From a virus, in IMG/VR virus record IMGVR_UViG_3300021964_007043: a stretch of DNA of 64,000 bases; one strand, written 5' to 3'. How positions within the stretch are numbered: the first letter of the stretch is position 1; each line of letters begins with the position of its first letter. The notes beneath the pieces were generated by a model. It searched no databases, was not told the DNA's origin, and worked only from the letters and a program-made list of their open reading frames with translations. Positions 1,206-48,055 of the stretch are shown one piece after another. Position numbers and translations under genes: made by a program.

Positions 1206-1233
1206 AATATAACATCATACAAATAAAAGTCAA
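1206..1233 (-). promoter_or_regulatory. Sigma-70-type promoter TTGACT-N16-TATATT
   Basis: Near-consensus -35 and -10 boxes directly upstream of the RNA; the -35 box overlaps the TGA stop of the 28-aa ORF. Confidence 0.6.
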
Positions 1234-1316
1234 CCTTTTTTTAATAAAAAGTTAATCTTTTTTTCACGATATTGTTTGATTAGTCTTTTGAAGTACCAAA
1301 ACGTTAATCGATCCAT
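1230..1316 (-). CDS. 28-aa basic peptide downstream of the glutamine riboswitch (MDRLTFWYFKRLIKQYREKKINFLLKKG)
   Basis: AGGAGAAG RBS just before the ATG; open frame to TGA; too short for the ORF track. Confidence 0.65.
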   Translation of the reverse strand: MDRLTFWYFKRLIKQYREKKINFLLKKG

Positions 1317-1344
1317 TACACTTCTCCTAGTTAAAGGTTAAAGT

Positions 1345-1388
1345 GCGTTCCTTCGCAGTATGCTACTTCCGTCCCGTAGGATGAACGT
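1345..1388 (-). ncRNA. Glutamine riboswitch aptamer (glnA class)
   Basis: ACGUUC-A-UCC(UACG)GGA-CGGAAGUA-GCA(UAC)UGC-GAAG-GAACGC: P1 CGUUC/GAACG, P2 with a UNCG tetraloop, the CGGAAGUA/GAAG E-loop core and P3. Matches the glnA-motif architecture. Confidence 0.85.
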
Positions 1389-1393
1389 AAAAA

Positions 1394-1399
1394 TATTTA
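1394..1399 (-). promoter_or_regulatory. T4-like late promoter (TAAATA) upstream of the riboswitch
   Basis: TAAATA 5 nt before the aptamer, right after the capsid-gene terminator. Confidence 0.65.
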
Positions 1400-31900: not shown

Positions 31901-32483
31901 TAAAATCAATGCAATAAAGTCAATAAGTGACGAAGTCATTTATCATCCAACGAGGTATAAAATATTGTTTGGAACAAAAGCAAAGGAAGATTTGCAAGTT
32001 ATTTTTAAAATAGTAAAAAATCCGGATTTAGTAACTAATAATAACGAACTTAAAGCAGACATTATTAGTGCGATTGATAGATTCTTTGCACTTGAAAACT
32101 GGGACTTTGGAGAAACTTTCTACTTCCAAGAACTTAGTACATATGTTTTATCACAACTAAGTCCAAAACTTGTTAGTTTCTTAATGATACCGAAACAAGA
32201 AACACAAAGTTTTGGTAGTTTATTCCAGATTAAATCAGAACAAGATGAAATACTTATAAGTGGAGCTACTGTAGACGATGTTGAAATTATTGACGAGATA
32301 ACAGCAGCATCATTACAAGCAAGCGGCGCAGTTATACAAAGTTCTGATAATACAAACTATACAGCAATACAAAGTAGTTCTAGTTCTAGAACTACGTATT
32401 CATCAAACACAACTTCTAGTTCATCTAGTTCTAGTTCATCTAGTTCTAGTTCATCTTCAACAGGCGGAGGCTATAGTTACTAA
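28953..32483 (+). CDS. gp6: Baseplate wedge protein (gp6-like), Ser-rich tail
   Basis: SYDFDNLR, DYIESSEFLALIDMIAYLGQNLSFRIDLNARENFLETAERRESILRLA, QNRLITGEDY. Confidence 0.9.
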   Translation: MSSTDRQSRLLVAEDWKRIYQSFRNADFQSYDFDNLRRTMIQYLRQNYPEDFNDYIESSEFLALIDMIAYLGQNLSFRIDLNARENFLETAERRESILRLARMLAYNPRRNQCANGLLKISTVKTTESIFDSNGLNLANTVIKWNDQSNSSYFEQFIKVLNAALPVQNTIGNPLKTATINDIVTQKYRINATNTKQAIYPFSKRIEGSTTRFEVVSVDIQDQSLVEEPPLPGNSLAYVFRDDGQGAASINTGFFCQFRQGKLDEGSFGITNPTPNQAVAIDAQNINDTDIWLYGVDTVGVEVAPWTKIDSVEGNNIIYNNLFQGIKDVFAVNTRVGDRISLIFSDGVFGNLPSGNFKTYYRTSANRSMVVTPSAIGRIDIEIPYQGRNGNLETLFFGLELKTTVSNSSPSETNDEIRTNAPATYYTQNRLITGEDYNIGPLAISQDIIKTKSTNRISAGISRYLDLKDVSGKYSNTDLFSTDGIVYKEEFEEKTKFSFNTQSDIEGIVNNAVEGIISGTYLRNYYLDKFPRNIVSDLSVSWNAATEATNFYTGTVKDIDDAIVQVGSFTANALRYLESGALVKFVPPEGYYFDKNNDLVLGTATTKNSKTYIWTKVVSVVDDGTAIDNNGFGAITVNDDIPQDALLSEIIPKFNRSLNNDVKAQIIDQTFNYNDYALRYDTESREWKLILGENINTASDFAVGKSGDDSGQNLDASWLLRFKTDGQTYEVFYRNLRFVFESDTEIKFFFDSSDKVYDVKTGKTYRDKIDILSINTVQGSTDAYTRDFTWTIQDAYRDIEGYVDNKKIVITYLDSDDDGVVDDPELFDILVDYDNTLVANEDKIVFQERYYTSDGVENYKYFPNTDNTILIVENEAAVAPYSSRTEGQIFYLLEEKVFKKLNKAANNLSLVVEYKAYEGRSNLKFHYSHVADSNYRIDPAVSNIIDTYVLTKSYDTRLRTWLKEENTTKPLPPSNDELYRQFGSKINAIKSISDEVIYHPTRYKILFGTKAKEDLQVIFKIVKNPDLVTNNNELKADIISAIDRFFALENWDFGETFYFQELSTYVLSQLSPKLVSFLMIPKQETQSFGSLFQIKSEQDEILISGATVDDVEIIDEITAASLQASGAVIQSSDNTNYTAIQSSSSSRTTYSSNTTSSSSSSSSSSSSSSSTGGGYSY
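32415..32456 (+). repeat. TCTAGTTCATCTAGT tandem repeat (~2.8 copies) encoding poly-Ser
   Basis: Read directly from the sequence. Confidence 0.85.
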
Positions 32484-35400
32484 TGGCTTTTAATGACGAT
32501 AACGAAACAAATCAGTCTAACTCAAAAATAACAAGTTCAGACTTTTTGCCAAAGTTTTTTAGAACTAATGCTAATAAAAAGTTTTTACAAGCAACATTAG
32601 ACCAACTTATACAACCTGGCGAAGCTGAAAAAATAGAAGGTTATTTTGGCAGAACCAATGCTAAAGCATTTAAGGCTACAGATAACTATATTGAAGATTT
32701 TTCAGACGAAAGAAAAAACTATCAGCTGGAACCTGCGTTAGTTTCGAAAGACGAGTTTGATAATGTTACTTTTTATAAAGATTATAATGATTACGTAAAT
32801 CAACTTAAAGTGTTTGGCGCAGACACTAGAAACCACAGCATTCTTAATAGTCAAGAAACTTATCCTTGGAATCCTAATATTGATTGGGATAAGTTTGTAA
32901 ACTTTAGAGAATATTATTGGTTGCCAAATGGTCCTCAAACTGTTAATGTTAGAGGACAAGCAAAAGAAGTTGTTAGTACATATACCGTAACTACAGTTGA
33001 TGACGACGATAACACATCATATGTTTTTAATGATGGTTTAACAAGGAACCCTACACTTACTCTTTACAGAGGTCAAACGTACCGATTTGAAGTAGATGTT
33101 CCAGGAAACCCTATTGCTTTTGCAATCAGTAGGACTTTTACTCCTGGTGCAGCAATACTTGTTGCTGGCACAGAAGGTATAAGAGCAAATGGTCTATATG
33201 ACGGAACTCTTTACGACGAAGAAGATGCAAACTATGATTTAGGCGAGTTTATTGTTTTACCAAGTGGCGGCAGTGTTACCTTTGAAGAAGATGAAAACGT
33301 AAGCACAATTTATCCAGACGGTATTAGAAAGTTTGGAGAAGAAGGTGAAGAAGTAGCAACAGTATACCTAGAAAAAGGAACAATAGAGCTTACTATTCCG
33401 GAAAATGCTCCAGAAAGATTGTTTTATGTTAGTAAAAATAATATTGATACTAGTGGATATGTAAAAATAGCCGACATTGAAGAAAACACTTTCTTGAATG
33501 TTACAAGTGATATTTTAGGTAAAAAAACATATACTAGTGCCAATGGTATAGAGTTTACTAACGGACTTAAAATAAGATTTCAAGGCGATGTAACTCCAGA
33601 TATATATGAAACTGATAACTGGTATGTAGAAGGTGTCGGATCGAATATTAAACTAATCAATGAAAAAGACTTGATTATTCCAGCAGCATATGCTGAAGAC
33701 AACTTTGTTCCTTTTGATAGAGAAAGTTTTGATACATTACCTTTTAGTAGAGCAAATAGTTATACTGGAACAAAAGATTATCTAGTTATTAACCGTGCAA
33801 GTCAAGATAGAAATGCGTGGAGTAGATATAATAAATGGTTCCACAAAGATGTTATATTAAAAAGTGTAGAATATAACGGAACAGAGAATACAACAGACGA
33901 AAGTTTTAGAGCAAAACGTCCTATTATTGAGTTTGAAGCAGGACTTAAACTTAACAACTATGGAGTCTATGCAAAACAAGATGTTGATTTAATCGATACT
34001 GTAACAACTGATGTGTTTTCAAATATTGAAGGCCAGGTTGGATATAGAGTAGACGGTGTAAGTCTTGCTGATAATATGAGAGTTCTTTTTGTTGCTGATC
34101 CTGATATCTTAGTAAACGGAAAAATTTATATTGTTAAGTTTATAAGAATAGGCAACAAACGTCAAATCAATCTTATAGAAGCAACTGATGCAACACCACA
34201 ATCTTTAGAAACTGTATTAGTTACCAGTGGTAATAAAAACGCAGGTAAAAGTTATTTTTACAATGGATCATCTTGGCAACTTTGCCAAGAAAAAATTGAA
34301 ACTAACCAAGAACCTCTTTTTGATGTATTTGACATTGACAAAAATAGTTTTAGTGATACCCAGACGTATAACTCTTCTACTTTTGTAGGAACTAAACTGT
34401 TTTCTTACAAAAGAGGAACTGGTAGTAATGATACAGAACTAGGATTTCCTTTAAGTTATAGGAATATTAATAATAGTGGAGATATTGTATTTGACTTTAA
34501 TCTTATGTTGGATACATTTACATATGAACAGGATACAGATTTTTTTCAAAAATCTATAAATCCGGGATTTTTGAAAAAGTATAAAAATCTTACTGACTTT
34601 GAATGGGTAAATGGATTATCTAAAACTCCTCAAAAAAGTATCCAAAAAGTTATACGCCAATACGTAGTAGATGAATTTGAAAATCAATCATTTGAAATAG
34701 ATGTGTATAATAATGCGGCCACACTATCTGATCTTGTAGTTAATGTACTTGTTAATAATAAGCTAAGAAAAGATTATATTATTGATCGTACAAATAATAG
34801 TGCATATGTTGTTTTTAACGAAGAACTTTCCGATGGTGATAATGTTATTATAAAAACAAGAAGTTCAGCTAAAAAGAATATAAATGGGTATTATGATTTT
34901 CCAATAAACTTAGAAAGAAATCCGCAAAACGAAGATTTTACAGAGTTTACATTAGGCGAAGTTATTGATCATGTTGATACAATGATCGAAGATTTACGTA
35001 GTTTTGAAGGTGTATATCCTGGAACAAGTAATCTTAGAGATATCGGCGATATAGATGTATACGGAAAGAGATTTGTAAAACATGCAGGTCCTATTAACTT
35101 ATCTTCGTATCATGTAACTAATAAGAACTATAACTTAATTAAAGCTCTTAACTACAGTAGAAGAGAGTATGCTCGTTTTAAAAGAAACTTTATCGAAGTA
35201 TCTACTGGGTTAGGTATAGATACTAATACAAAGCAACATGTTGATTTAATACTTAAAGATCTTAACAAGGATAAGCTAAAAACTGAACCATTTTATTTTA
35301 GTGATACTCTTGCATATCAATCAGCAAACGTTATTGAATATACTATTTTAGATGTTAGAACTAGAAGCTATGCATTATCGCAAGAGTTTAATCTGTTAGA

Positions 35401-38400
35401 TCTTACGAATAAAAGTGTAAATGTTTACTTAAACGGCGAACAACTTATACACGGTGTTGATTATGATTTTAGTAATCCGGGGTTTGTTGATGTATTTGCA
35501 GATTTTTTACAAGAAGGCGATATATTAGAAATATATGAATATGACTCAACAGATGGCAGTTTTATACCTCCTACTCCTACAAAGTTAGGATTATATCCTA
35601 AGTATGCTCCTGCACTTACGTATGATGATACTTTTAGACCTGAAGCAGGCGAAAGACCTGAAGACAATATTGGTTATAAGATTTATGCCCAGTCAGAAGA
35701 AGGATATAATGCTGCTGGAAAAATTGGTTGGTTCTATCCTTTATATACAACTTTACAAGCAGCACAAGATAAAGATTTGTCATTAGGCGGCTCGGGATCT
35801 GCACACAAGCATATGTTTAAAGGCTCAAACATTATATTGTACATGCCTAATACAAATGCAGTTCATGCTGGAGTAGATACTAACGTTTATGATGCATATC
35901 CTGTAGGACAACCTATGGTGAAAGGGCACGACGGAAGTTATGTAAGATGCTTTTATGATTACAGAGACAATCTATTACTAGAACTAGAAAAAAGATTATT
36001 TAATAATATTAAAAATGATTATAATAAAGAAATCCTTAATGTACAGGATTTTATAGGCGGCGAGTTTAGAAATAGTGATTATACTAGAGAAGAAGTAAAC
36101 AGTGTATTGCTAAGAGACTTTGCAGATTGGCTAACAATAGTTAACAATGACTATTCAGATCATTATTTCTATTTGAGACAGGACGAGTTTACTTTTAACT
36201 ATTCTTCTATGAAGTCTTATAATGGAAATACAATGCCAGGATTTTGGAGAGGCATCTATCAACATATTTTTGATACAGATCGTCCTCATACACATCCTTG
36301 GGAAATGTTAGGATTTACAATTAAGCCAACATGGTGGAATGATGTTTATGGACCTGCTCCATATACAGCAGATAACTTAATACTTTGGGAAGATTTACAA
36401 GAAGGCAAAATAGCAGAACCTGGAAATATTAGATATGATAACAAATATACTAGAAAAGATTTGTTACTTCATATTCCAGTAAACTCAGACGGTAGTTTAA
36501 AAACTCCTCTAGAAGCAAATATTCCTGATAACTTTGTTTTAAGACCTACAACTAATAACTTTAGTTTTGGAGATTGGGCACCTGTAGAAAATGCATGGCG
36601 TAGAAGTTCTGAATATCCGTTTGCTGTACTTACTGCAATGGTACTTAATAAACCTGCTGAAACAATAGGCTTAGGTTTTGACATTAGCAGAATACAGCGT
36701 AACTTTGTAGGTCAATACATTTATAATCCTACCAGTAAAACAATTAAACTAGATGATATATTACTACCTAATACAGTACAATCTTCACAACGTGTTATGA
36801 CAGCTGGTCTTGCAAACTATATTTCAAATCTTATATCGAGTAATATCTTGAAAGTGTACGAAGACTACCAAACTGAACTGAAGTCTATAACAAACCAGTT
36901 AGGTCTAAAAATCGGCGGCTTTACTGATAAAAATAAGGTTAAGATTATTCTTGATAGCAGAAGTATTGTAGAAGATCAGAGTCAAAATGGCGTTTTTGTA
37001 CCTGAAGAAAACTACGATGTATTTTTAAACACTAGTTCTCCAACAGACTTGATTACTTACAGTGGATTGATTATAGAAAAAGTTTCAAACGGATTTAACA
37101 TTAGAGGATATAGTAAAGACAATCCTTATTTTGATTATTACTTGCCACTTACAGGAACTAGATCGGTTGATATTACTGTCGGCGGCATCGGCGAAGCTAC
37201 CACGGATTGGGCAAGTAGAAAGATTTTTGCTAAAGGCGAAGTAGCTGAAAACGGAGGAAAGTATTATAGAGTTACTGCTGATTTTACTTCTGGCGCAACA
37301 TTTGATACAGAAAATCTAGCATTATTACCTAAGTTACCTGTTGTAGGCGGAAAAACTGCAAACTTTAAGCGTAACTTTAGTAAACAAAGTATTGAAAGAA
37401 TACCTTACGGTCATAGATTTACAACTAGCCAACAAGTAGTTGATTTTATACTTGGATATGGAGAGCGTTTAAAAGACATTGGTTTTGATTTTAGCTACAC
37501 TATAAACGGACGTCAAATAGATGACTGGAATGACAGTGCTAAAGAGTTTTTATTCTGGACAACACAAGGATGGGCAAGTGGAACATTATTAACTATAAGT
37601 CCTGCTGCTAACCAACTTTATTTTGACAGAGACTATCATGTTGTTGACAGCCTAAGCGACCCATTTTACGGATATACTATATTTGATGAAAACGGCCAAC
37701 CATTAGATTTGAGATTTAATAGTATACTTAGAGATCAAAATAGTTTTGGTATCGAGGTAGTCAATACCGATCACGGATTATATCATGTTGCACTTCCTAT
37801 TGTTCAGAAAGAACATGTTGTATTATTTGATAACAAAACAGTGTTTAACGACATTATATACCAGCCGTCTACAGGCTATAGACAAGAACGTCTAAAAATA
37901 AATGCTTATAGAACTGACAACTGGCAAGGTGGGTTTAATGTTCCAGGATTTATTTTTGATGACGGACAGTACACTTCGTGGTCAGAATATAAAGATTATA
38001 AAATAGGCGACATGGTAAAATATCGCCAGTATTATTATATTGCTACACAAAATATACCTGGTACAAATATTTTTAATGACTCACAATGGTATAGATTAAA
38101 TGAAGAACCAGAAAAGAAACTATTAACAAACTTTGACTACCGAATCAATCAGTTTATGGACTTTTATGATTTAGACAATGCAGGGTTTGACGAAAGTCAA
38201 CAAGAGCTTGCACAGCACTTAGTCGGTTACCAAAAAAGACAGTACCTAGCAAATATTATAAACGATGATGTAAGTCAGTTTAAGTTCTATAATGGGTTCA
38301 TTCAAGATAAAGGTACAATGAATGCTGTAGTAAAACTATTTGACAGTTTATCTGATAACGAAGAAGATAAAGTAAAGCTATACGAAGAATGGGCAGTACA

Positions 38401-41400
38401 GCTTGGTAGATATGGTTCTATCGATAACGAAAAACAAATTGAGTACAAACTTACAGATGATAAGTTAGAAGAAGCCCCTCAAATATTTGAGATTGTAAAC
38501 TCTGATCCTAAAGTTATCGATAAGATTTATAGATTATTACCAGCAGATGTTAACGATAAGCCTGAAGGCTATATTCATGAGTCTGCAATGCCTGTTAAGG
38601 CTGTAAGAGAATATTTGAAAACAGGTGGCTATGTAAACCAGGATCATGTAACCTATATTGCTTATGACAAAGAAGAACTAGCAAATACTGATGTAAACTT
38701 AGTTAAGCTAGGAGATTATATCTGGTTAATAGAAACCGGCGCAGATGATTGGACTGTTTACCAAATAATAGATACAAAGATAAAAGCAATAGACCTAGAA
38801 CCTAACACTGGTGATTTTACAGAAGATAACGATCCGCTTATAGAAATAACACTAGATAAGTGGACAAAAAATAATATACAAGTAGGCGAAATATTTGGAG
38901 TATTAGGTGCTTCATCTTATGAGTTAGAAGGACTTTATGAAGTTCAAAAAGCAGAACTTAACAAAATAAAGTTTGTGTCTACAACTACTCCAACTAACTT
39001 TGAAAATCAAGAGTTAGCTTTAGTAAAACTTAGACCTGTAAGAGTTACAAAATCTTCTGAAATAAATGATGTTGTTAAAGAGTCATTATTAAACGATCAG
39101 CGTTTTTGGGTAGATGATTTTAATAATGGGTCGTGGGCAGTTGTTGAAAATAATCCGGTTTATAGCCAGCGTCAAGTAGTTGCTAATCCAAGTGATTGGG
39201 ATAGTACAGATCAAGAGTTTGGAAAAACTATGGCTGTTACCGCAAATAACAGAACTATGGTTATAGGTGCACCAGGTGACGAAAATGGTAAGATAACAGT
39301 ATATCAAAGACCTAGAGAAAATAGTAACTTTATTGTTAACCAGGAAATAACATTTACTGAAGAAGATAAGTTTGATGTTACTGATAGTAGATTTTCACAA
39401 TCTGTGGATATTTCACCCGACGGAGAATATATTGTTGTAGGTATACCTAATGCCTCTAATGTAAAGACAAAATATAAAGGAGAGTTTAATCCTACTTTGG
39501 GTTATGTTAAAGGAGATATTGTAAAATATAGAGAAAGTTTATGGCAAGCTCTCCGAGAAATACAACCGAAAACTGTTTCCCAAGATTTCTCAACTTTTGA
39601 TAACTATCAAAATATCATCCAAGATCCATCCGTCGATTCAACAAACTTAACATTACTTGTGTCCGGTGATCCGGGATTAGAAAATAACTATGTAGATCAC
39701 TTCTTAGTAAGAGCACCGCTTGATATGTACTTAGGTACAAAATCAAGAAACTTTGAAACAGACGAGTCGGGAGATTTTGTAAGCCTTATTTGGAATCAGC
39801 GCAGTTTTGCATATCCAACACTTGATAACTATCAACCGTTTAACGGAGCATTTCCAAATCTAAATGCTTCTTGGTTAACAAATACATTGCATGAGATTAT
39901 TCATAAAGTAGATGCTGTATTGCAAATACCGACATTTATTGCCCTTCCTGATGTCGGAGATTTTGTAACATCAAACACAGGTAGAGCAGAAGTTGTCTAT
40001 GTTTCTACAGCAGAAGACAGTGCAGTGATATATGTTAAAGAAATAAATGGTATATTTGAAATAACAGGAGAGCTTTTTGTTAACGAAACAGAGTTTATAG
40101 GACTTTATTCATTAGAAGAAACCTTTACTACTAGCGATTTGCTAGGCGGATATTGGGTATTCAAAACTTATAATTCAGATGCAGCACCTGTATCGGGTTG
40201 GGAAAGCGAAATAGTAGATGTTGACGGATTTACGTATAGAAACTTATCAAGTTTTTATGATGTTGGCCAGGGGTTGACAGTTTCAGATGTTATTATTGCT
40301 GCTGAAGAAGGAAGAGCAGTTAGAAGATACTATAATGTTCAAGACGATGTAGGAGAAATAGGTGAATATGTTAACTTAAAAAACAGAGTAAGTTTTATGA
40401 CACAACTGTCCTACACCGGTGATCCAACAGATGCAGACGGCCAAGATGGAACAGAACTAGTCCGTATTACAAATAAATGGGTAGTAAGAGTTGGAAAGCA
40501 ATTTTCAAATGATTTAAGTCCTGGAGATAGTTTTAATCTACAAATATATGATGTCGATGTAGACATTAATTATGATGGAACACTATTATCAGACTCGATA
40601 GTAAACACTGAACAAACTATCTCAGAAATTTGGGATGGATATATCGATTGTGAACTATCTAGGTTTGACGCTTCTGGATTCCCCTTCCAGCCACAAGGAA
40701 GATATTATCATGACGGAACCATTTTACAAACTAGAGATCGAGGCGATGTGATTATTGATGTACAAACAGCAAGTGACGGGTCTGGAGGACTTGCTGTTAG
40801 TGCATTGGCTCCTAATAGTGCTGCCGAAGTAATGTATGTGCAGCGTGATTTTAATAAACTAAGATTATACGTTCGATTACTTGATGAATACACAGAAGCA
40901 GATGGAACTGTTGTATCAGTAAGCGGAACTTTTGAAGAACTTAATAATATTGGAAGGTATGAACTAAAACGGTTAGCCAATGATGATATTAGAGGCAGCG
41001 GCGATGTTGACAGAGTATTTGGAGAAGTCGAGTCTTCTCAAAACGATATAGTTGTAGGAACAAGTGTTGTAGGAAAGTTACTAGTGTTTGAAGCAGATTC
41101 TGATTTTGTAAACTCTAGTAATTCTTGGACAGATACTCCTATATTATCAGACATAGAATATTATTTCTTTAGAGAAGGAATAAATCCTGGTATACCTCTT
41201 GATGAAAATCCGCCTTATAGTTTAAATAAGGATTACCGACAGTTGTTCAATATGCCTGTAGATGAGTTTGGTACTTCAAATGGCTTTGCTAACGAAGGAG
41301 TAATAGCAATATACAGGCGTAAAAATGATTCCACTTATGCTTTACAAAAAACCCTTGCAAGTTTATATTTTAAAGAAGATAGACAGTTTGGGTCTAAAGT

Positions 41401-44400
41401 TAGAATCGTACAAAATAACAAGTATTATACCTTATTAGTATCTGCAAGTGGATCAGGTACTAAAGAAAATGCAGGACAAATAGAAATATTTAGACACGGT
41501 ATTAGACCGACAGACGCCTTTAGCGGAGATTACCAAGTTAGAGATTATGAAATAGACGAAATAGTTTATTATAAAGATGAATATTATGAAGCTATTAGAT
41601 CTGTGCCTAGCATAGTTATTCCTACAGATCCAGTTTATTGGAGAAATATAAGTTGGAGATATGGTAAAGACGTTAACTACAGAGGCGAATGGAATAATGC
41701 TTACAGCTATGCAGAAGACAATATTGTACTCAAAGACAATACTCTTTATAAAGCAACTACTAATATAAGTCAAGATGTTCCTTTTACCACTAGTGATTGG
41801 ACTGAAGTTGATAGTAGAATAGACTATGTAGGGTATTTGCCTAATCTAACTGGACAAACGTTATACGATGAAGACATCTATGATCCAGCAACTGATGTTT
41901 TACAGTTTACACAAACATTTGATATAAGCGACGATGCTGAAGTATTAGTTGTAAAATCAGAACTTGCTGCTAGTGATAGTACTACTAAAAAGCGCATAGT
42001 TGTTTACCGTGCTATAGACAATAAGTTTGCTGTTGACCAGATTATAGAATCTCCTAATAATGATACAGAATGGGGCGAAAACATCAGTCTTAATCCGCAA
42101 GGTGACAAGTTTGCAGTAAGTGCGTCTAAAAATGATGAAGCTGGTACAGACAAAGGAATAGTTTATATTTACAAACTACAAAACGGACAGTTTGTATTAG
42201 ATCAAATGCTAACTAGTCAGCAAAACGAAGTAGCAGAAGAGTTTGGACATGCACTAGACTTTGGTAGTGAAAACTTATTGATTAGCAGTCTTAATGGCGA
42301 TCAAAAAATTCCAACTACATTTGACAGCGAAACAACATTCTTTGATAGTAGATTTACTAAGTTTGAAAATATTAAACTAGATAAAGGTGTGATTTATATC
42401 TACGAAGATTTAAACAACGAACTTGTTTATTCTGAAAACATAATATATCCGAGTGTACAAGCAACATTTGGCGAAAACTTATACAATGTTAAAAACCATA
42501 TCTATGTTGGTATCCCTCTACAAAGTTCTGGAACATGGGACGCAGAAAATGATACACTTGACGGATATAGAGGACAAGTAGTAAACTTTAGAAAAGATGT
42601 TGGTTCAACAGCATGGGAAAGATTAGACACACAAGTACTTCCTGTTGATGTTGATAAGATTTCTGGAATAACTTTGTATAACAAGAGAACTAATACTTTT
42701 ATATCAAGACTAGACTATATCGATCCCTTACAAGGAAAAATAGCAGGCCCTGCAGAACAAGAAATAGATTACAAAGCTGGGTTTGATCCTGCAAACTATA
42801 ATACAGGACTAGCAAGCGATTTCTTAGTAGACCCTGCAAGATATTGGGGGAAAGAGCATGTCGGTGAAACATGGTGGGCAACTAACGGCGCAAGATTTAC
42901 ATATCCATACCGTGGCTCTATTAATGATCAAAAACGTGATTGGAATAAACTTATTAGAGGTTCTAGTATAGATATTTTTGAATGGGTAGAAAGCGATTAC
43001 GTACCACAAGTTTGGGACGAACTTGCAGATACTGACAATGGATTAAAACTCGGAATAAGTGGACAAAGTGTTTACGGAAATACTCGTTACAGCACACAGT
43101 TAACATATGATAAAATATCTCAAAACTTTAGAGCAAAATACTATTTCTGGGTGCAAAATAAACGTACAATACCTACAGATTATAAACCTAAGAGAAAACT
43201 AAACTGTGTAGATATTTCAAACTTAATAGAAAATCCTAGATTGCAGGGTTATAAGTATGCAAGTCTTATAGGCGCAAATAGATTTATTCTTAATAACTGT
43301 AATGATCTTATACAAGGTGACGATGTTATACTTCAAATAAGATATAAAGAAGATACTGAAAATGTTATCAATAGACATAACGAATATCAAATCTTAAGTG
43401 AAGGTTTAGAAACTAGCTTTATTCACCCTGACATAGAAAGAAAATGGTGGGACAGTCTTATTGGGTTTGACACCAACTTAAGGCCTGTTCCGGATTTAGG
43501 CATCCCTGCTAACAAGAGATATGGTATACAGAATAGACCTAGGCAGAGTATGTTTAAAAATCGTTTCGAAGCACTGAAACAAACAATCGAGCGTGTAAAC
43601 TTAGCAGTAGAATCTCAACTACTTATTGATAGTTACGATTTATCAAGGTTGCTAGAAAAAGAGGCACAACCTCTAGAAACAACAGGGCAATATGATACTA
43701 AGATTACAAACTATAGTGATATCCGATTTGTTAGTACAAATAAAGTACAACAAGCTGAGATTGACTTAGTTATTAGTAATGGGCGTATTGTAAGTGCAAA
43801 TATTATTAATGCCGGACGTGGTTACAAAGTTGCTCCGTCGTTTGATATAGAAGGACCAGGATCTGGTGTTATTATTGATTTTACAATCAATAATCTAGGA
43901 CAAATAACTGCGGTGAATATCTCAAATAGCGGCTCAGGATATCTTGATACTACTAGACTGATAGTAAGACCATTTAGTGTTCTTGTAGAAACAAATGAAA
44001 ACCTATATGGTAAGTGGACCATTTACAGTTGGAATGGTAGTTCTTGGTATGTTAGAAGTATACAAGATTATGATGTTTCTAACTATTGGGAATATCAAGA
44101 TTGGTATGCTGAAGGATTTAACCAGTTCTCAACTATCAACTATTCAGTAAAAGGAACATACTTATTACCTAGTCTAACTGATCAGTTAGGAGACATTGTA
44201 AAAGTTGAGTCTACTGGTTCAGGCGGCTGGATACTTTTACAAAAAGTTGCTTCTGGTTATACTGAGGATTATACTGAAAACTACAATGTTGTTGGTAGAG
44301 AAAAAGGAACTATATATTTTAAAGAATCTTTATACGACTATAGTGTAAATGCTGTAGGATTTGATAATAGATCTTTCGACAGTTTCTTTTACGATAATAA

Positions 44401-47400
44401 TCCAGTAAAAGAGTTGCGTATTATATTAGAAACACTTAGAGATGATATATTTGTTAATGATCTAGCAGCAGAATATAATAACTTATTCTTTGTTTCGGTA
44501 AGATATGCTCTTGCAGAGCAGCCTGGTTTAGATTGGATATTTAAAACTAGTTTCGTAAAAGCAAAATATAATGTTAGCGAACTTAGAAATGATTTAACGT
44601 TTAACAGCGATAATCTTAAGAGTTTTGAAGATTATTTGAAAGAAGTAAAACCTTATAAAACAAAAATAAGAGAATACGTTGACGTTTATGATAAAGTAGA
44701 TCCTACAAATACTAGTGTTACAGATTTTGATCTACCACCATTTTATAGTGTTTCAGACGGTACTATTGTACCAAATAGAAGTGTAGTAAAGAACAGCAAT
44801 ATTGATACTGTAAACACTACTGAGTTTGACGAATATCCGAGAAAACATTTTATTGAAAATGTAGGCTACACCGTTACCGAAATAAAAATAAAAGACGGAG
44901 GAAGCGGTTATACATTTACTCCTAAGATTAACATTATCGGAGAAAGCACAAGACAAGCTAAAGCAGTTGCATATATTGGTTACGGAAAGATTACAAATGT
45001 AAAAATAACAGACCCTGGTAGTGGATATATCACAAGTCCTATTGTTGAAATACAAGGAGCCCAAACAGATGACGGCACTCCTGCAAGACTTAGTGTAATA
45101 TTAGGCGATAGTCCGATAAGAACAGCACACCTGCGTATTAAGTTTGATAGACATTCTGGAACAGTGTTTATTGAAGAACTCCAAGAAGTTGAAACATTTA
45201 CTGGGAATAATGTGCAAGCACAGTTTGAACTAGAATGGCCAATGGATGTTGATCGTAAGAAAGTTTCAATCACAATAGATGGTAAAGAACTTTTAAACAG
45301 TGCATATACATACGAAAACGTAGAAAATACAGATAAGACTTATACAAGACAAAATGGTAAGATTACGTTTGCTACACCTCCTTTACAAGGAGAACAGATT
45401 GTAGTTAGTTATTATAAGCCTATTGATATGTTAGCAGCACAAGATAGAATACATCATTTTTACGAACCAATGACAGGAATGCTAGGCAAAGATTTTTCAC
45501 AGTTAATGAAAGGTATTGATTACGGTGGAGTAGAAGTTAAGTCAATTGATTTTGCAGGACCAAGTGGTTGGGATACAGCAGGATGGTATACTGACACTTG
45601 GGATACATTTGATAATACTTATGAAGATGAAGTATTTGTTGCAGATGGATCTACTATATTTGTAGAACTAAGTAAGCCATTGGAAAGTGGTATTATTTAT
45701 AATGTTTACAAAGGTGAATCAGGATCAGTTAATCTTGTAAGACTTGATGACCCTAACTTTGGAACTGAACAGCAAGTAAATGAAGATGCTATTATAGAAA
45801 GTATTACTGGTGACAGCACAACTACAGTTATTGATCTTGATACATTGGGTATTAGCTTTAATGACGGCGAAACACTTGTTGTAAGAAAAGTTTCAAGTGA
45901 TGGTTCGATTACACCTGATCCTACAAGCTATGACACACAAATAAGCGGTGGCGATTTACCATATGCAACGGCAAAAGGTGTAAATGCTGAAGAAATAGTT
46001 GTTGATGGCGACGGATTTATTAATCCTGTAACACATGCAGGCCCTGAAGAACTTATTCCTGGATTAGTTACAGATGCACTTGATATTAAAGTATACACTA
46101 GAGATCAAGACGGCAACGGAGTTATTCATAGTCAAAGTTATACAACTGATGGAATAAGAACTAAGTTTAGTTTAGGAACAATACCTTCTACAAAATATGC
46201 AGTATTTGTAAAAATAAATGATATCTTAGTTGTAGATACAGAGTATACAATAGATTGGACTAATAATATTTTAACACTTAACAGTGTTCCAGCAGCAAAT
46301 CAGGAACTTAATATTATTGCTCAGTCTTTGGGTACTAATAGCTTGCTAGATTATGGAAAACATATTACAGACGGGTCGACTTCTGAAATCATAACAACTG
46401 TTGATTGGGTTGACGGAGCAAGTGTAAGTGCATCAGTTGATGGCGAGCCTATAGATATTATTGTATTCAATAGCAAGGATGAAGGATACGATTTACCTAA
46501 TCCTAAAGTTGGAATTAGGTTTGAGGAAATCTTGTTAGAAGACAGGGTTGTACACTATGCAGTATTTTCTTCAAACGATATTACAAACTACAGTAGAGTT
46601 ATTGTTAGTAACTTTATCGGAGACGGATCAAGAACGGCGTTTACACTAGATGACGTTCCATTTACAGCAGTACCATTAGAACATAAAATAATTGTAAAAG
46701 TTGGAAACAAGATTTTAAATCCGGGATACAATATTAAGTTTACAATACCTGAAAATAATCAAAGAACTTATGCATTTGAATCATTCCAACAAGCAATAGG
46801 AACACTAGATGTTGAAGAATTAAAAGTATTCTTAAATGGCGAAGAAATATTTTCTCCTATAGATTGGAGATATGATGTTGCAAATGCTACTATTTTATTG
46901 ACAGATAATACCGGACAACCAGGAGATACATTGGAAATATTTGCTATTGCAGACGGTGAATATGCGTTTGGATATTTAAACGGTTCGGATGTGTGGATTG
47001 ATACTCCAGGAACCTTACATCTAGACACACCACCATTGTTAGGTGAAGAACTTGAAGTATATCAGTTCAGTAATCATGATTTCTTGGGCATTGAACGCAT
47101 AAATTATGATGTAGTTGATAGAGGTTCTAGATCTATTGCAAGCGAGGTTACAACTTACAGATTATTAAAATCTGGAACTATTAGACTACGCGAGCCTGCA
47201 GTTGATGCACAGTATGTTTGGGTAAGCAAAAATAACGAGCTGCTTACTCCGAGTGTGGATTATTATATAAACGATGATAAGACTGAAGTGAAACTAGTTC
47301 AAACTCCTGCTGATGATGATGTTATAGATATATTACACTTTACAGCACCAGTTGGTGCAGCTAAGTTTGCATATCGTCAGTTTAAAGATATGCTTAATAG

Positions 47401-48055
47401 AACACATTATAAGCGTTTAGATAAAGCAGAGGTTACACTACGCCAGCCATTAAACTATTATGATCAGCGAATCGAAGTTAGAAAAGGCAATCTATTAGCA
47501 GAACCAAATAAAGGTAAAAACTTACCAGGCATTATTTGGATTAATGGAGAGCGTATAGAGTACTTTGTTAAAGAAGAAAACACTCTACGTCAGCTTCGTA
47601 GAGGTACATTAGGTACAGGTATTAAAAATATTCATGAGGAAGGTTCTGAGGTTTATGACCAAAATGTTAGTAAAACTGTTCCTTATCAGGATATTACAGT
47701 GAGCAAAGCATTTATAGCAGATGGCGTAACAACAGATTTTGAACCAGGATTTGAAATATCTAATATAAACGAAGTAGAAGTATTTGCAGGCGGAACAAGA
47801 TTGCGCAAAGCATCTATAGAAGTATTTGATCCTACAGTTGCCCAAGACAGTCCAGAAGGTGACAGTACTGAATCTGCAGAGTTTAGTGTAGAAAACAATA
47901 TTGTTAGTATTGTAAATATACCAGCAGATGAAACACAAGTTATGATAGTTAAAAAGACAGGTTCTTTATGGAGCCCCGAAGGTGAACAGTTAGCACAGAC
48001 AGAAAATAACATTGCAAGATTCTTACGTGCAGGCACAAGTGAGTTACCAGAATAA
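32483..48055 (+). CDS. Giant baseplate wedge / adhesin-like protein (gp7-like, 5190 aa)
   Basis: Follows gp6; N-terminal LPKFFRT..NKKFL and WDKFVNFREYYW; repeated CBM-like, FG-GAP-like, GSGY and F.GDG..T.F modules. Confidence 0.75.
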   Translation: MAFNDDNETNQSNSKITSSDFLPKFFRTNANKKFLQATLDQLIQPGEAEKIEGYFGRTNAKAFKATDNYIEDFSDERKNYQLEPALVSKDEFDNVTFYKDYNDYVNQLKVFGADTRNHSILNSQETYPWNPNIDWDKFVNFREYYWLPNGPQTVNVRGQAKEVVSTYTVTTVDDDDNTSYVFNDGLTRNPTLTLYRGQTYRFEVDVPGNPIAFAISRTFTPGAAILVAGTEGIRANGLYDGTLYDEEDANYDLGEFIVLPSGGSVTFEEDENVSTIYPDGIRKFGEEGEEVATVYLEKGTIELTIPENAPERLFYVSKNNIDTSGYVKIADIEENTFLNVTSDILGKKTYTSANGIEFTNGLKIRFQGDVTPDIYETDNWYVEGVGSNIKLINEKDLIIPAAYAEDNFVPFDRESFDTLPFSRANSYTGTKDYLVINRASQDRNAWSRYNKWFHKDVILKSVEYNGTENTTDESFRAKRPIIEFEAGLKLNNYGVYAKQDVDLIDTVTTDVFSNIEGQVGYRVDGVSLADNMRVLFVADPDILVNGKIYIVKFIRIGNKRQINLIEATDATPQSLETVLVTSGNKNAGKSYFYNGSSWQLCQEKIETNQEPLFDVFDIDKNSFSDTQTYNSSTFVGTKLFSYKRGTGSNDTELGFPLSYRNINNSGDIVFDFNLMLDTFTYEQDTDFFQKSINPGFLKKYKNLTDFEWVNGLSKTPQKSIQKVIRQYVVDEFENQSFEIDVYNNAATLSDLVVNVLVNNKLRKDYIIDRTNNSAYVVFNEELSDGDNVIIKTRSSAKKNINGYYDFPINLERNPQNEDFTEFTLGEVIDHVDTMIEDLRSFEGVYPGTSNLRDIGDIDVYGKRFVKHAGPINLSSYHVTNKNYNLIKALNYSRREYARFKRNFIEVSTGLGIDTNTKQHVDLILKDLNKDKLKTEPFYFSDTLAYQSANVIEYTILDVRTRSYALSQEFNLLDLTNKSVNVYLNGEQLIHGVDYDFSNPGFVDVFADFLQEGDILEIYEYDSTDGSFIPPTPTKLGLYPKYAPALTYDDTFRPEAGERPEDNIGYKIYAQSEEGYNAAGKIGWFYPLYTTLQAAQDKDLSLGGSGSAHKHMFKGSNIILYMPNTNAVHAGVDTNVYDAYPVGQPMVKGHDGSYVRCFYDYRDNLLLELEKRLFNNIKNDYNKEILNVQDFIGGEFRNSDYTREEVNSVLLRDFADWLTIVNNDYSDHYFYLRQDEFTFNYSSMKSYNGNTMPGFWRGIYQHIFDTDRPHTHPWEMLGFTIKPTWWNDVYGPAPYTADNLILWEDLQEGKIAEPGNIRYDNKYTRKDLLLHIPVNSDGSLKTPLEANIPDNFVLRPTTNNFSFGDWAPVENAWRRSSEYPFAVLTAMVLNKPAETIGLGFDISRIQRNFVGQYIYNPTSKTIKLDDILLPNTVQSSQRVMTAGLANYISNLISSNILKVYEDYQTELKSITNQLGLKIGGFTDKNKVKIILDSRSIVEDQSQNGVFVPEENYDVFLNTSSPTDLITYSGLIIEKVSNGFNIRGYSKDNPYFDYYLPLTGTRSVDITVGGIGEATTDWASRKIFAKGEVAENGGKYYRVTADFTSGATFDTENLALLPKLPVVGGKTANFKRNFSKQSIERIPYGHRFTTSQQVVDFILGYGERLKDIGFDFSYTINGRQIDDWNDSAKEFLFWTTQGWASGTLLTISPAANQLYFDRDYHVVDSLSDPFYGYTIFDENGQPLDLRFNSILRDQNSFGIEVVNTDHGLYHVALPIVQKEHVVLFDNKTVFNDIIYQPSTGYRQERLKINAYRTDNWQGGFNVPGFIFDDGQYTSWSEYKDYKIGDMVKYRQYYYIATQNIPGTNIFNDSQWYRLNEEPEKKLLTNFDYRINQFMDFYDLDNAGFDESQQELAQHLVGYQKRQYLANIINDDVSQFKFYNGFIQDKGTMNAVVKLFDSLSDNEEDKVKLYEEWAVQLGRYGSIDNEKQIEYKLTDDKLEEAPQIFEIVNSDPKVIDKIYRLLPADVNDKPEGYIHESAMPVKAVREYLKTGGYVNQDHVTYIAYDKEELANTDVNLVKLGDYIWLIETGADDWTVYQIIDTKIKAIDLEPNTGDFTEDNDPLIEITLDKWTKNNIQVGEIFGVLGASSYELEGLYEVQKAELNKIKFVSTTTPTNFENQELALVKLRPVRVTKSSEINDVVKESLLNDQRFWVDDFNNGSWAVVENNPVYSQRQVVANPSDWDSTDQEFGKTMAVTANNRTMVIGAPGDENGKITVYQRPRENSNFIVNQEITFTEEDKFDVTDSRFSQSVDISPDGEYIVVGIPNASNVKTKYKGEFNPTLGYVKGDIVKYRESLWQALREIQPKTVSQDFSTFDNYQNIIQDPSVDSTNLTLLVSGDPGLENNYVDHFLVRAPLDMYLGTKSRNFETDESGDFVSLIWNQRSFAYPTLDNYQPFNGAFPNLNASWLTNTLHEIIHKVDAVLQIPTFIALPDVGDFVTSNTGRAEVVYVSTAEDSAVIYVKEINGIFEITGELFVNETEFIGLYSLEETFTTSDLLGGYWVFKTYNSDAAPVSGWESEIVDVDGFTYRNLSSFYDVGQGLTVSDVIIAAEEGRAVRRYYNVQDDVGEIGEYVNLKNRVSFMTQLSYTGDPTDADGQDGTELVRITNKWVVRVGKQFSNDLSPGDSFNLQIYDVDVDINYDGTLLSDSIVNTEQTISEIWDGYIDCELSRFDASGFPFQPQGRYYHDGTILQTRDRGDVIIDVQTASDGSGGLAVSALAPNSAAEVMYVQRDFNKLRLYVRLLDEYTEADGTVVSVSGTFEELNNIGRYELKRLANDDIRGSGDVDRVFGEVESSQNDIVVGTSVVGKLLVFEADSDFVNSSNSWTDTPILSDIEYYFFREGINPGIPLDENPPYSLNKDYRQLFNMPVDEFGTSNGFANEGVIAIYRRKNDSTYALQKTLASLYFKEDRQFGSKVRIVQNNKYYTLLVSASGSGTKENAGQIEIFRHGIRPTDAFSGDYQVRDYEIDEIVYYKDEYYEAIRSVPSIVIPTDPVYWRNISWRYGKDVNYRGEWNNAYSYAEDNIVLKDNTLYKATTNISQDVPFTTSDWTEVDSRIDYVGYLPNLTGQTLYDEDIYDPATDVLQFTQTFDISDDAEVLVVKSELAASDSTTKKRIVVYRAIDNKFAVDQIIESPNNDTEWGENISLNPQGDKFAVSASKNDEAGTDKGIVYIYKLQNGQFVLDQMLTSQQNEVAEEFGHALDFGSENLLISSLNGDQKIPTTFDSETTFFDSRFTKFENIKLDKGVIYIYEDLNNELVYSENIIYPSVQATFGENLYNVKNHIYVGIPLQSSGTWDAENDTLDGYRGQVVNFRKDVGSTAWERLDTQVLPVDVDKISGITLYNKRTNTFISRLDYIDPLQGKIAGPAEQEIDYKAGFDPANYNTGLASDFLVDPARYWGKEHVGETWWATNGARFTYPYRGSINDQKRDWNKLIRGSSIDIFEWVESDYVPQVWDELADTDNGLKLGISGQSVYGNTRYSTQLTYDKISQNFRAKYYFWVQNKRTIPTDYKPKRKLNCVDISNLIENPRLQGYKYASLIGANRFILNNCNDLIQGDDVILQIRYKEDTENVINRHNEYQILSEGLETSFIHPDIERKWWDSLIGFDTNLRPVPDLGIPANKRYGIQNRPRQSMFKNRFEALKQTIERVNLAVESQLLIDSYDLSRLLEKEAQPLETTGQYDTKITNYSDIRFVSTNKVQQAEIDLVISNGRIVSANIINAGRGYKVAPSFDIEGPGSGVIIDFTINNLGQITAVNISNSGSGYLDTTRLIVRPFSVLVETNENLYGKWTIYSWNGSSWYVRSIQDYDVSNYWEYQDWYAEGFNQFSTINYSVKGTYLLPSLTDQLGDIVKVESTGSGGWILLQKVASGYTEDYTENYNVVGREKGTIYFKESLYDYSVNAVGFDNRSFDSFFYDNNPVKELRIILETLRDDIFVNDLAAEYNNLFFVSVRYALAEQPGLDWIFKTSFVKAKYNVSELRNDLTFNSDNLKSFEDYLKEVKPYKTKIREYVDVYDKVDPTNTSVTDFDLPPFYSVSDGTIVPNRSVVKNSNIDTVNTTEFDEYPRKHFIENVGYTVTEIKIKDGGSGYTFTPKINIIGESTRQAKAVAYIGYGKITNVKITDPGSGYITSPIVEIQGAQTDDGTPARLSVILGDSPIRTAHLRIKFDRHSGTVFIEELQEVETFTGNNVQAQFELEWPMDVDRKKVSITIDGKELLNSAYTYENVENTDKTYTRQNGKITFATPPLQGEQIVVSYYKPIDMLAAQDRIHHFYEPMTGMLGKDFSQLMKGIDYGGVEVKSIDFAGPSGWDTAGWYTDTWDTFDNTYEDEVFVADGSTIFVELSKPLESGIIYNVYKGESGSVNLVRLDDPNFGTEQQVNEDAIIESITGDSTTTVIDLDTLGISFNDGETLVVRKVSSDGSITPDPTSYDTQISGGDLPYATAKGVNAEEIVVDGDGFINPVTHAGPEELIPGLVTDALDIKVYTRDQDGNGVIHSQSYTTDGIRTKFSLGTIPSTKYAVFVKINDILVVDTEYTIDWTNNILTLNSVPAANQELNIIAQSLGTNSLLDYGKHITDGSTSEIITTVDWVDGASVSASVDGEPIDIIVFNSKDEGYDLPNPKVGIRFEEILLEDRVVHYAVFSSNDITNYSRVIVSNFIGDGSRTAFTLDDVPFTAVPLEHKIIVKVGNKILNPGYNIKFTIPENNQRTYAFESFQQAIGTLDVEELKVFLNGEEIFSPIDWRYDVANATILLTDNTGQPGDTLEIFAIADGEYAFGYLNGSDVWIDTPGTLHLDTPPLLGEELEVYQFSNHDFLGIERINYDVVDRGSRSIASEVTTYRLLKSGTIRLREPAVDAQYVWVSKNNELLTPSVDYYINDDKTEVKLVQTPADDDVIDILHFTAPVGAAKFAYRQFKDMLNRTHYKRLDKAEVTLRQPLNYYDQRIEVRKGNLLAEPNKGKNLPGIIWINGERIEYFVKEENTLRQLRRGTLGTGIKNIHEEGSEVYDQNVSKTVPYQDITVSKAFIADGVTTDFEPGFEISNINEVEVFAGGTRLRKASIEVFDPTVAQDSPEGDSTESAEFSVENNIVSIVNIPADETQVMIVKKTGSLWSPEGEQLAQTENNIARFLRAGTSELPE

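Follow-up and report, generated by a model that had tools for sequence, protein, structure and literature searches.

The locus behind the capsid gene

The window, by which we mean the whole 64-kb stretch of DNA that was analyzed, carries on its minus strand a major capsid protein gene (1452–2624) whose best isolate matches are jumbo T4-like phages, with 65–70% identity to Sinorhizobium phage Phosso, Vibrio 2.275.O, PA5oct and Serratia BF. The source phage is an uncultured phage of the T4-like jumbo type, and relatives of 175–186 kb were rated about half complete. A 5190-aa open reading frame (ORF; 32483–48055, plus strand) lies among the structural genes. Reading away from the capsid gene on the minus strand, the order is the terminator of that gene (1431–1406, a hairpin with U-tract and A/T tracts flanking both sides), a TAAATA box (1399–1394), a glutamine aptamer (1387–1345), a Shine-Dalgarno sequence (SD, 1328–1324) and a short ORF (1316–1230). 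An earlier note on this DNA had listed a TAAATA, an aptamer, a ribosome binding site and an ORF directly after the capsid-gene terminator, and all of them were found in place on the minus strand, the terminator hairpin included.

Further 3′ on the same strand follow a sigma-70-type promoter, a manA RNA, a terminator (984–955), a second TAAATA and a freshwater-2-like leader. The promoter belongs to manA (1206–1233, TTGACT-16-TG-TATATT) and its −35 box holds the stop codon of the peptide gene. The manA RNA itself (RF01745, 992–1198, 89.3 bits) is a neighbor of the switch and not a part of it. Since the intrinsic terminator at 955–984 is the first one after the peptide gene, the late transcript probably ends there. 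From 955 to 1233 manA forms a stand-alone promoter-to-terminator unit without an ORF and is not the 5′ leader as which Rfam lists it; in relatives, manA or other structured RNAs are found behind the same promoter. manA RNAs were shown to form closed cages of up to 60-mers (2026 preprint, 10.64898/2026.07.01.735769). The second TAAATA (942–937) and the freshwater-2-like leader of a 120-aa gene together cover 845–942. The leader match (845–920) scores 41.2 bits, below the cut-off of 49.9, and the element is fixed before the 120-aa gene in relatives, where it reaches 54–77 bits. The earlier note had drawn all this together as a 600-bp RNA-rich regulatory island. The two RNA elements are present downstream but are separate units and not parts of the switch, and the region is better described as a slot in which independent units are swapped: L014 has manA but no switch, whereas L013 and L018 have the switch but no manA.

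The TAAATA box lies 6 nt before the aptamer and is a putative late promoter. In 67/113 cases TAAATA is found within 22 nt upstream of the first viral aptamer, with a spacing peak at 6 nt as in the window, compared with 8/118 bacterial aptamers at the same placement; this geometry backs the earlier assignment as a late-type promoter. The capsid terminator is followed by TAAATA in 42/66 relatives, whichever cargo comes next, and several structural genes of the window are preceded by it too. Across all non-coding DNA, TAAATA is enriched no more than other A/T hexamers. Its placement agrees with that of T4-type late promoters, a TAAATA core about 6 nt before late units, and we take it to be a likeness of the T4 late box. 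By this analogy the cassette would be expressed late.

The aptamer and its expression platform

The Rfam covariance model Glutamine (RF01739) matches 1342–1389 with 49.7 bits (E 6.7e-8 for the whole window, gathering cut-off 35 bits), the single such aptamer in the window. This cmscan-type search, proposed in the earlier note, agrees with the glnA-class assignment made there. From C1 to the linchpin C60 (base numbering after PMC6212724) the aptamer occupies 1345–1387 and consists of P1 (CGUUC/GAACG), P2 with a cUACGg loop, CGGAAGUA, a 3-bp P3 and GAAG; the architecture is the one previously described, while the length is 42–43 nt and not 44 nt. The three-way junction of P1, P2 and P3 with its E-loop is the aptamer's own minimum free energy structure, and G23 and C60 are both present. 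P2 and P3 covary with 100% of cells paired in 59 homologues; the invariance of P1 and the core is no evidence, because both were in the search pattern. Glutamine-II/Downstream-peptide (RF01704) scored 11.3 bits in the window, below its cut-off of 33. Judged by covariance model and fold, the RNA is a type-1 glutamine aptamer, with glutamine binding itself predicted. A variant of the aptamer in which G replaces A24 (GGGAGUA) occurs at L004:5238–5278 and in L042 and still scores 43 bits.

The SD (AGGAG, 1324–1328) lies 16 nt behind the aptamer and 7 nt before the AUG, and the AUG lies 28–29 nt from the aptamer, in place of the 24-nt spacer stated earlier. Folding and covariation indicate an anti-SD hairpin at 1318–1346 on the minus strand, with 7 bp (1346–1340/1324–1318) and an inner CCU/AGG, in which the aptamer's last two bases face the end of the SD and the SD–AUG spacer. 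The alternative pairing that had been suggested as a possible expression platform thus exists and covaries, but it includes the last base of P1 (G59) and the linchpin C60 and does not start only after P1. Both bases are needed in the bound state, G59 at the end of P1 and C60 in the linchpin pair with G23, so that hairpin and bound state compete. Alone the hairpin folds at −9.7 kcal/mol (z −3.2), and within the whole leader its pairs have probabilities of 0.89–0.99. Across the 59 homologues pairing in the helix reaches 94.6%, against 41–70% when it is slid, and two-sided changes number 24, against 9.4 in shuffles. As the aligned sequences were selected by their linker type and are relatives of one another, this covariation is supportive and not a probability. 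Opening the SD–AUG region is predicted to cost 7.9 kcal/mol in the free state versus 5.8 with P1 locked, which is the right direction but modest in size; the swing is only about 2 kcal/mol because, according to ViennaRNA, most of the SD stays paired even with P1 locked. The aptamer has a leader position behind a predicted transcription start, and the platform overlaps it, as is characteristic of RF01739. On these models, the anti-SD hairpin is a probable translational ON switch. For the gifB switch the same mechanism was postulated and ON polarity was shown (Klahn et al. 2018, PMC6212724), and we infer ON polarity in the window switch.

A micro-protein family in phages and bacteria

The gene behind the switch (1230–1316, minus strand; AUG at 1316, 28 codons, stop at 1232–1230) encodes a basic amphipathic peptide of 28 aa (3.7 kDa, pI 10.5) from a conserved family. 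Its last codons (K-K-G) and its stop are at the same time promoter sequence, the stop lying inside the −35 box TTGACT (1233–1228). Eleven close homologues give a pN/pS of 0.37 in frame, against 1.17 and 0.97 for the other two frames, which are interrupted by stops in 11/11; pairs that include the window copy give 0.23–0.55. The 28-codon ORF, noted earlier as unannotated, is real and under purifying selection. This coding selection rules out a chance ORF (6% of shuffled sequences stay open). An attenuator-type leader sensing Gln codons was likewise rejected, with one Gln in 28 residues and a mean of 5.9% over all peptides. The basic charge is partly an effect of A-richness (0.16 per residue vs 0.10 in shuffles). 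The N-terminal half of the window peptide is amphipathic, the peptide holds no hydrophobic stretch of transmembrane length, and the nearly invariant Cys of the family is missing from it; a host family member is predicted as a single helix (pLDDT 89). Translation of the peptide is predicted, and a working switch with a translated peptide is very likely.

A profile search of 1.8 billion representatives yielded only 23 short family members. Pfam and NCBIfam held no family match for any of 30 members, and the ESM Atlas no usable match for the peptide. The earlier note had pointed to the inactivating factor IF17, which such an aptamer controls in cyanobacteria; as a protein the window peptide has no sequence link to IF7/IF17, with an hhalign probability of 0.2% against natural IF7 cores from sequences that NCBIfam confirmed as IF7A. 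A by-eye motif match to IF7 is ruled out by the same comparison. Natural IF7 homologues keep R8, R21 and R28, and the peptide family does not. The DUF4278 domain of IF17 was not found in the peptide, nor did the PirA profile NF050139 match any of the 30 members.

Among isolates, the window riboswitch is best matched by that of the OM43 phage Melnitz (84% DNA identity over aptamer and linker), for which control of the upstream tmRNA gene was reported (Buchholz et al. 2022, PMC9004378). In Melnitz the 3′ end of ssrA holds the aptamer. Downstream on that strand come the same platform as in the window, an SD and an unannotated ORF of 32 codons (L321:2571–2669, plus strand; MZ577097.1 46469–46567); in the Melnitz record the CDS annotated there is on the opposite strand. 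The Melnitz and window peptide groups match with an hhalign probability of 85% and are beaten by 0–1/300 shuffles. The two loci share the aptamer class, the platform and a same-strand SD with a homologous ORF, but Melnitz is a 141-kb Kyanoviridae phage with its cassette after ssrA, whereas that of the window follows the capsid gene. This sequence evidence says that the unit regulated by the Melnitz riboswitch would be an overlooked micro-protein gene and not tmRNA.

In related phages the cassette is optional. It is present in 8/66 capsid relatives, 6 with the same peptide family and 2 with other peptides behind the same aptamer, so the synteny that the earlier note had proposed to check is found for the family in 6/66, while the cassette is not fixed. 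The post-capsid slot of relatives holds many different small genes, including other basic peptides. Across 120 viral contigs, 107/108 terminal aptamers have an SD and a start 19–45 nt downstream; the ORFs behind viral aptamers encode 9–81 aa, are all net basic and fall into about 11 families, of which several show DUF4278-like YRG motifs, and many cassettes adjoin tmRNA, tRNA or manA. L094 and L138, two jumbo relatives with 76% capsid identity, hold a host-type cassette in the same slot with 82–88% DNA identity to chromosomal copies, and cassette versions therefore appear exchangeable, moving between phage and host. One chromosomal copy (L334:1260–1475, minus strand), which has a TATAAATA box and a peptide containing an internal duplication, is 88–91% identical to phage L138 and, by its sequence, looks like a phage-to-host transfer. 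Phage pqqA genes (TIGR02107) lie in or beside the slot at L018:5456–5524 (plus), L080:5322–5393 (plus) and L049/L050:5239–5307 (minus) and in L167, L130, L135, L163 and L164. In the last four, contigs from a different type of phage, the pqqA gene and the stop of the riboswitch peptide overlap, and in L018 pqqA follows the peptide. The window has no pqqA; its presence in relatives suggests PQQ-using hosts.

Bacterial copies of the aptamer are frequent in streamlined genomes, those of SAR11-like, SAR86, SAR116 and SAR92 bacteria among them. The anti-SD helix is found in 23/28 bacterial aptamers before small ORFs and in 3/72 before amtB, glnA, gltB/gltD or circularly permuted ATP-grasp (cpATP-grasp) genes, a split that fits the logic of an inhibitor turned on while assimilation genes use another platform. 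At many alphaproteobacterial loci (among L201–L318) the aptamers before amtB/glnA have a different conserved 3′ tail ending in CATARCTARGCATGA, possibly a distinct OFF platform or an aptamer extension. L202, L273 and 13 other loci of streamlined marine bacteria have aptamers directly upstream of cpATP-grasp genes, a position that ties this family to nitrogen status. SAR86 chromosomes (L266, L267, L287, L316, L208, L320) have tandem aptamers with basic peptides of 46–54 aa that end in a PYYL/NPFYP-like motif, as also seen in phage contigs. A cyanobacterial DUF4278–PirA fusion lies behind a type-1 glutamine riboswitch at L319:2172–2588 (minus strand).

Eight genomes of a betaproteobacterial clade (UBA3031 and kin) carry tandem aptamers with a peptide of 35–72 aa. 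Their cassettes mostly have a TTGACA promoter and their own terminator, and sit among housekeeping genes with nothing downstream. This host group matches the Melnitz group with an hhalign probability of 92%. Its direct link to the window group is weak, at an hhalign probability of 27% and with 86/300 shuffles scoring above the window peptide, so that the window-to-host family link holds only via intermediates. A similar-looking Rhodospirillaceae peptide (L274) was not significant (9/300 shuffles) and was not counted.

GlnE was found in 0/8 betaproteobacterial carriers vs 48/53 relatives and in 0/4 Porticoccaceae-like carriers vs 43/47 relatives (pooled 0/12 vs 91/100), contrasts that amount to two clade-level events in incomplete and streamlined assemblies, are confounded by streamlining and are overstated by Fisher test values. 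Among assemblies of up to 2.1 Mb the counts are 0/12 carriers vs 11/17 relatives, and GlnE was not found in a further 22 aptamer-bearing genomes (0/22). One GlnE-positive count comes from genome G074, and leaving it out alters nothing. In the Porticoccaceae-like carriers the switch controls a DUF4278-like protein, DUF4278 being the N-terminal domain of IF17. PII was found in 16/16 peptide-bearing hosts tested and in 13/14 controls. The SAR86 carriers have no GSI over the cut-off, only a GS-like frame of about 330 aa.

Proposed function and its alternatives

Late in infection, a short leader would be transcribed from TAAATA. Without glutamine, G59–C60 and the next five bases would be taken up in a helix with the spacer and the last bases of the SD, keeping translation low; with glutamine bound, C1–G59 and G23–C60 would be locked, the hairpin weakened and translation of the 28-aa basic helix raised. 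The peptide would serve as a host-type signal of nitrogen excess that binds and damps a nitrogen-assimilation protein of the host, most likely glutamine synthetase (GS), acting like cyanobacterial IF7/IF17 by analogy, not homology, in hosts without GlnE adenylylation. The phage would presumably benefit, with ATP and glutamate saved once nitrogen is plentiful. An inhibitor of nitrogen assimilation is suggested by the ON switch, the basic helical micro-protein, the stand-alone host copies and the missing GlnE taken together, and genomic context supports a role in nitrogen regulation. As a whole, a glutamine ON switch for a peptide that brakes host nitrogen assimilation is our preferred but tentative explanation, with a chance that we put a little below even. 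Given a working switch and a translated peptide, a nitrogen-assimilation target is reasonably likely, GS being about three times as likely as PII. IF7/IF17 bind GS via basic residues (PMC6316151). A predicted complex of the L340 peptide (alignment A3) with two GS copies from the same genome scored 0.00, which is uninformative either way. Against GS as the target stands OM43, reported to be without glnA as well as without the riboswitch (PMC9004378).

The closest known system is the gifB (IF17) leader of Synechocystis sp. PCC 6803 (PMC6212724), which shares the aptamer class, the pairing of C60 and the next bases with the ribosome binding region, a small basic product and possibly a host without adenylylation control. 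The window switch differs in that it lies in a non-cyanobacterial jumbo phage behind a late-type promoter and that its 28-aa product has neither DUF4278 nor an IF7 motif; outside unassigned marine metagenome DNA, type-1 switches had been found in cyanobacterial genomes alone (PMC6212724). IF7 and IF17 (GifA/GifB; NF052599 in NCBIfam; PMC6316151) are small, basic and helical and are made under nitrogen excess. The window peptide is small and basic as they are, and GlnE was not found in hosts of its distant family members, but it has no detectable homology to them, lacks their three essential arginines, and its GS binding is putative. PirA (NF050139), a PII-binding cyanobacterial protein, is also a small basic helical protein of nitrogen excess, although its profile does not match the peptide family. 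Downstream-peptide/glutamine-II (RF01704; Weinberg et al. 2010, PMC2864571) similarly places a glutamine aptamer before ORFs of 17–100 aa, but this is another aptamer class, picocyanobacterial, with ORFs that are mostly DUF4278.

With the same switch, the peptide might bind PII (GlnB/GlnK) as PirA does and redirect nitrogen flux or ammonium uptake. All peptide-bearing hosts tested have PII, the SAR86 carriers lack a GSI-type enzyme over the cut-off, and the DUF4278–PirA fusion in L319 stands behind the same riboswitch class. However, PII is near-universal, so that its presence says little, none of the 30 members matches the PirA profile, and the GlnE pattern points at GS; we consider a PII target unlikely. 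The pI of 10.5 would also suit an RNA- or ribosome-binding helix, and the stretch between peptide gene and manA, free of any terminator, would allow translation to be coupled to the next unit, by read-through into manA here or into the pqqA that overlaps or follows the peptide in relatives, so that glutamine would tune the downstream unit; tmRNA, tRNA or manA are near many cassettes. Yet the downstream neighbors are freely variable, manA has a promoter to itself and is also found where the cassette is missing, each host cassette is closed by a terminator of its own, and the amino acids are conserved and not just the open frame, all of which makes this improbable.

The late-type promoter, the placement of the cassette after capsid genes in two or more phage types and the amphipathic N-half would be in keeping with a peptide that acts on a phage process, such as lysis delay or assembly rate, and ties the burst to nitrogen supply. 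The earlier note had named virion output and lysis timing as possible points of action. Such direct roles lose likelihood in view of the relatives, which stand alone in the chromosomes of 7–8 bacterial genomes, with housekeeping neighbors, a sigma-70 promoter and a terminator; the cassette is also confined to 8/66 close phages and its product lacks a transmembrane-length hydrophobic stretch, and we regard this reading as quite unlikely. It is also rather improbable that the mobile cassette is near-neutral cargo of a recombination slot with no current benefit to the phage. The variety of the slot, the lost Cys and the overlap of the last residues with a promoter are compatible with it, but phage copies are under purifying selection, pairs with the window included, the phage promoter is kept at a fixed spacing and the platform is maintained by compensatory change.

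Glutamine riboswitches in cyanophages and Melnitz-like phages have already been published (PMC9004378, PMC9964418). The literature covered, with most subscription papers outside it, holds no description of the peptide family, the Melnitz ORF or the cassettes in GlnE-less proteobacteria. The new part is what the phage glutamine switch controls, on this evidence an overlooked micro-protein gene, and this corrects the published reading of Melnitz, which together with OM43 offers a cultured phage–host pair for the question. In a wider scheme, which we consider possible rather than likely and which rests on analogy, streamlined aquatic proteobacteria without GlnE would control GS by riboswitch-gated micro-proteins, convergent with the cyanobacterial IF system, and several phage lineages would have captured such cassettes under late promoters to throttle host nitrogen assimilation, with the window and Melnitz peptides as members. 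Control of nitrogen assimilation by inhibitor proteins has been described as unique to cyanobacteria (PMC6212724). If the peptide damps GS or PII, this type of control would also exist in GlnE-less heterotrophs and in the viruses that infect them, and the cassette would be a metabolite-sensing auxiliary gene of only 170 bases that gene callers miss.
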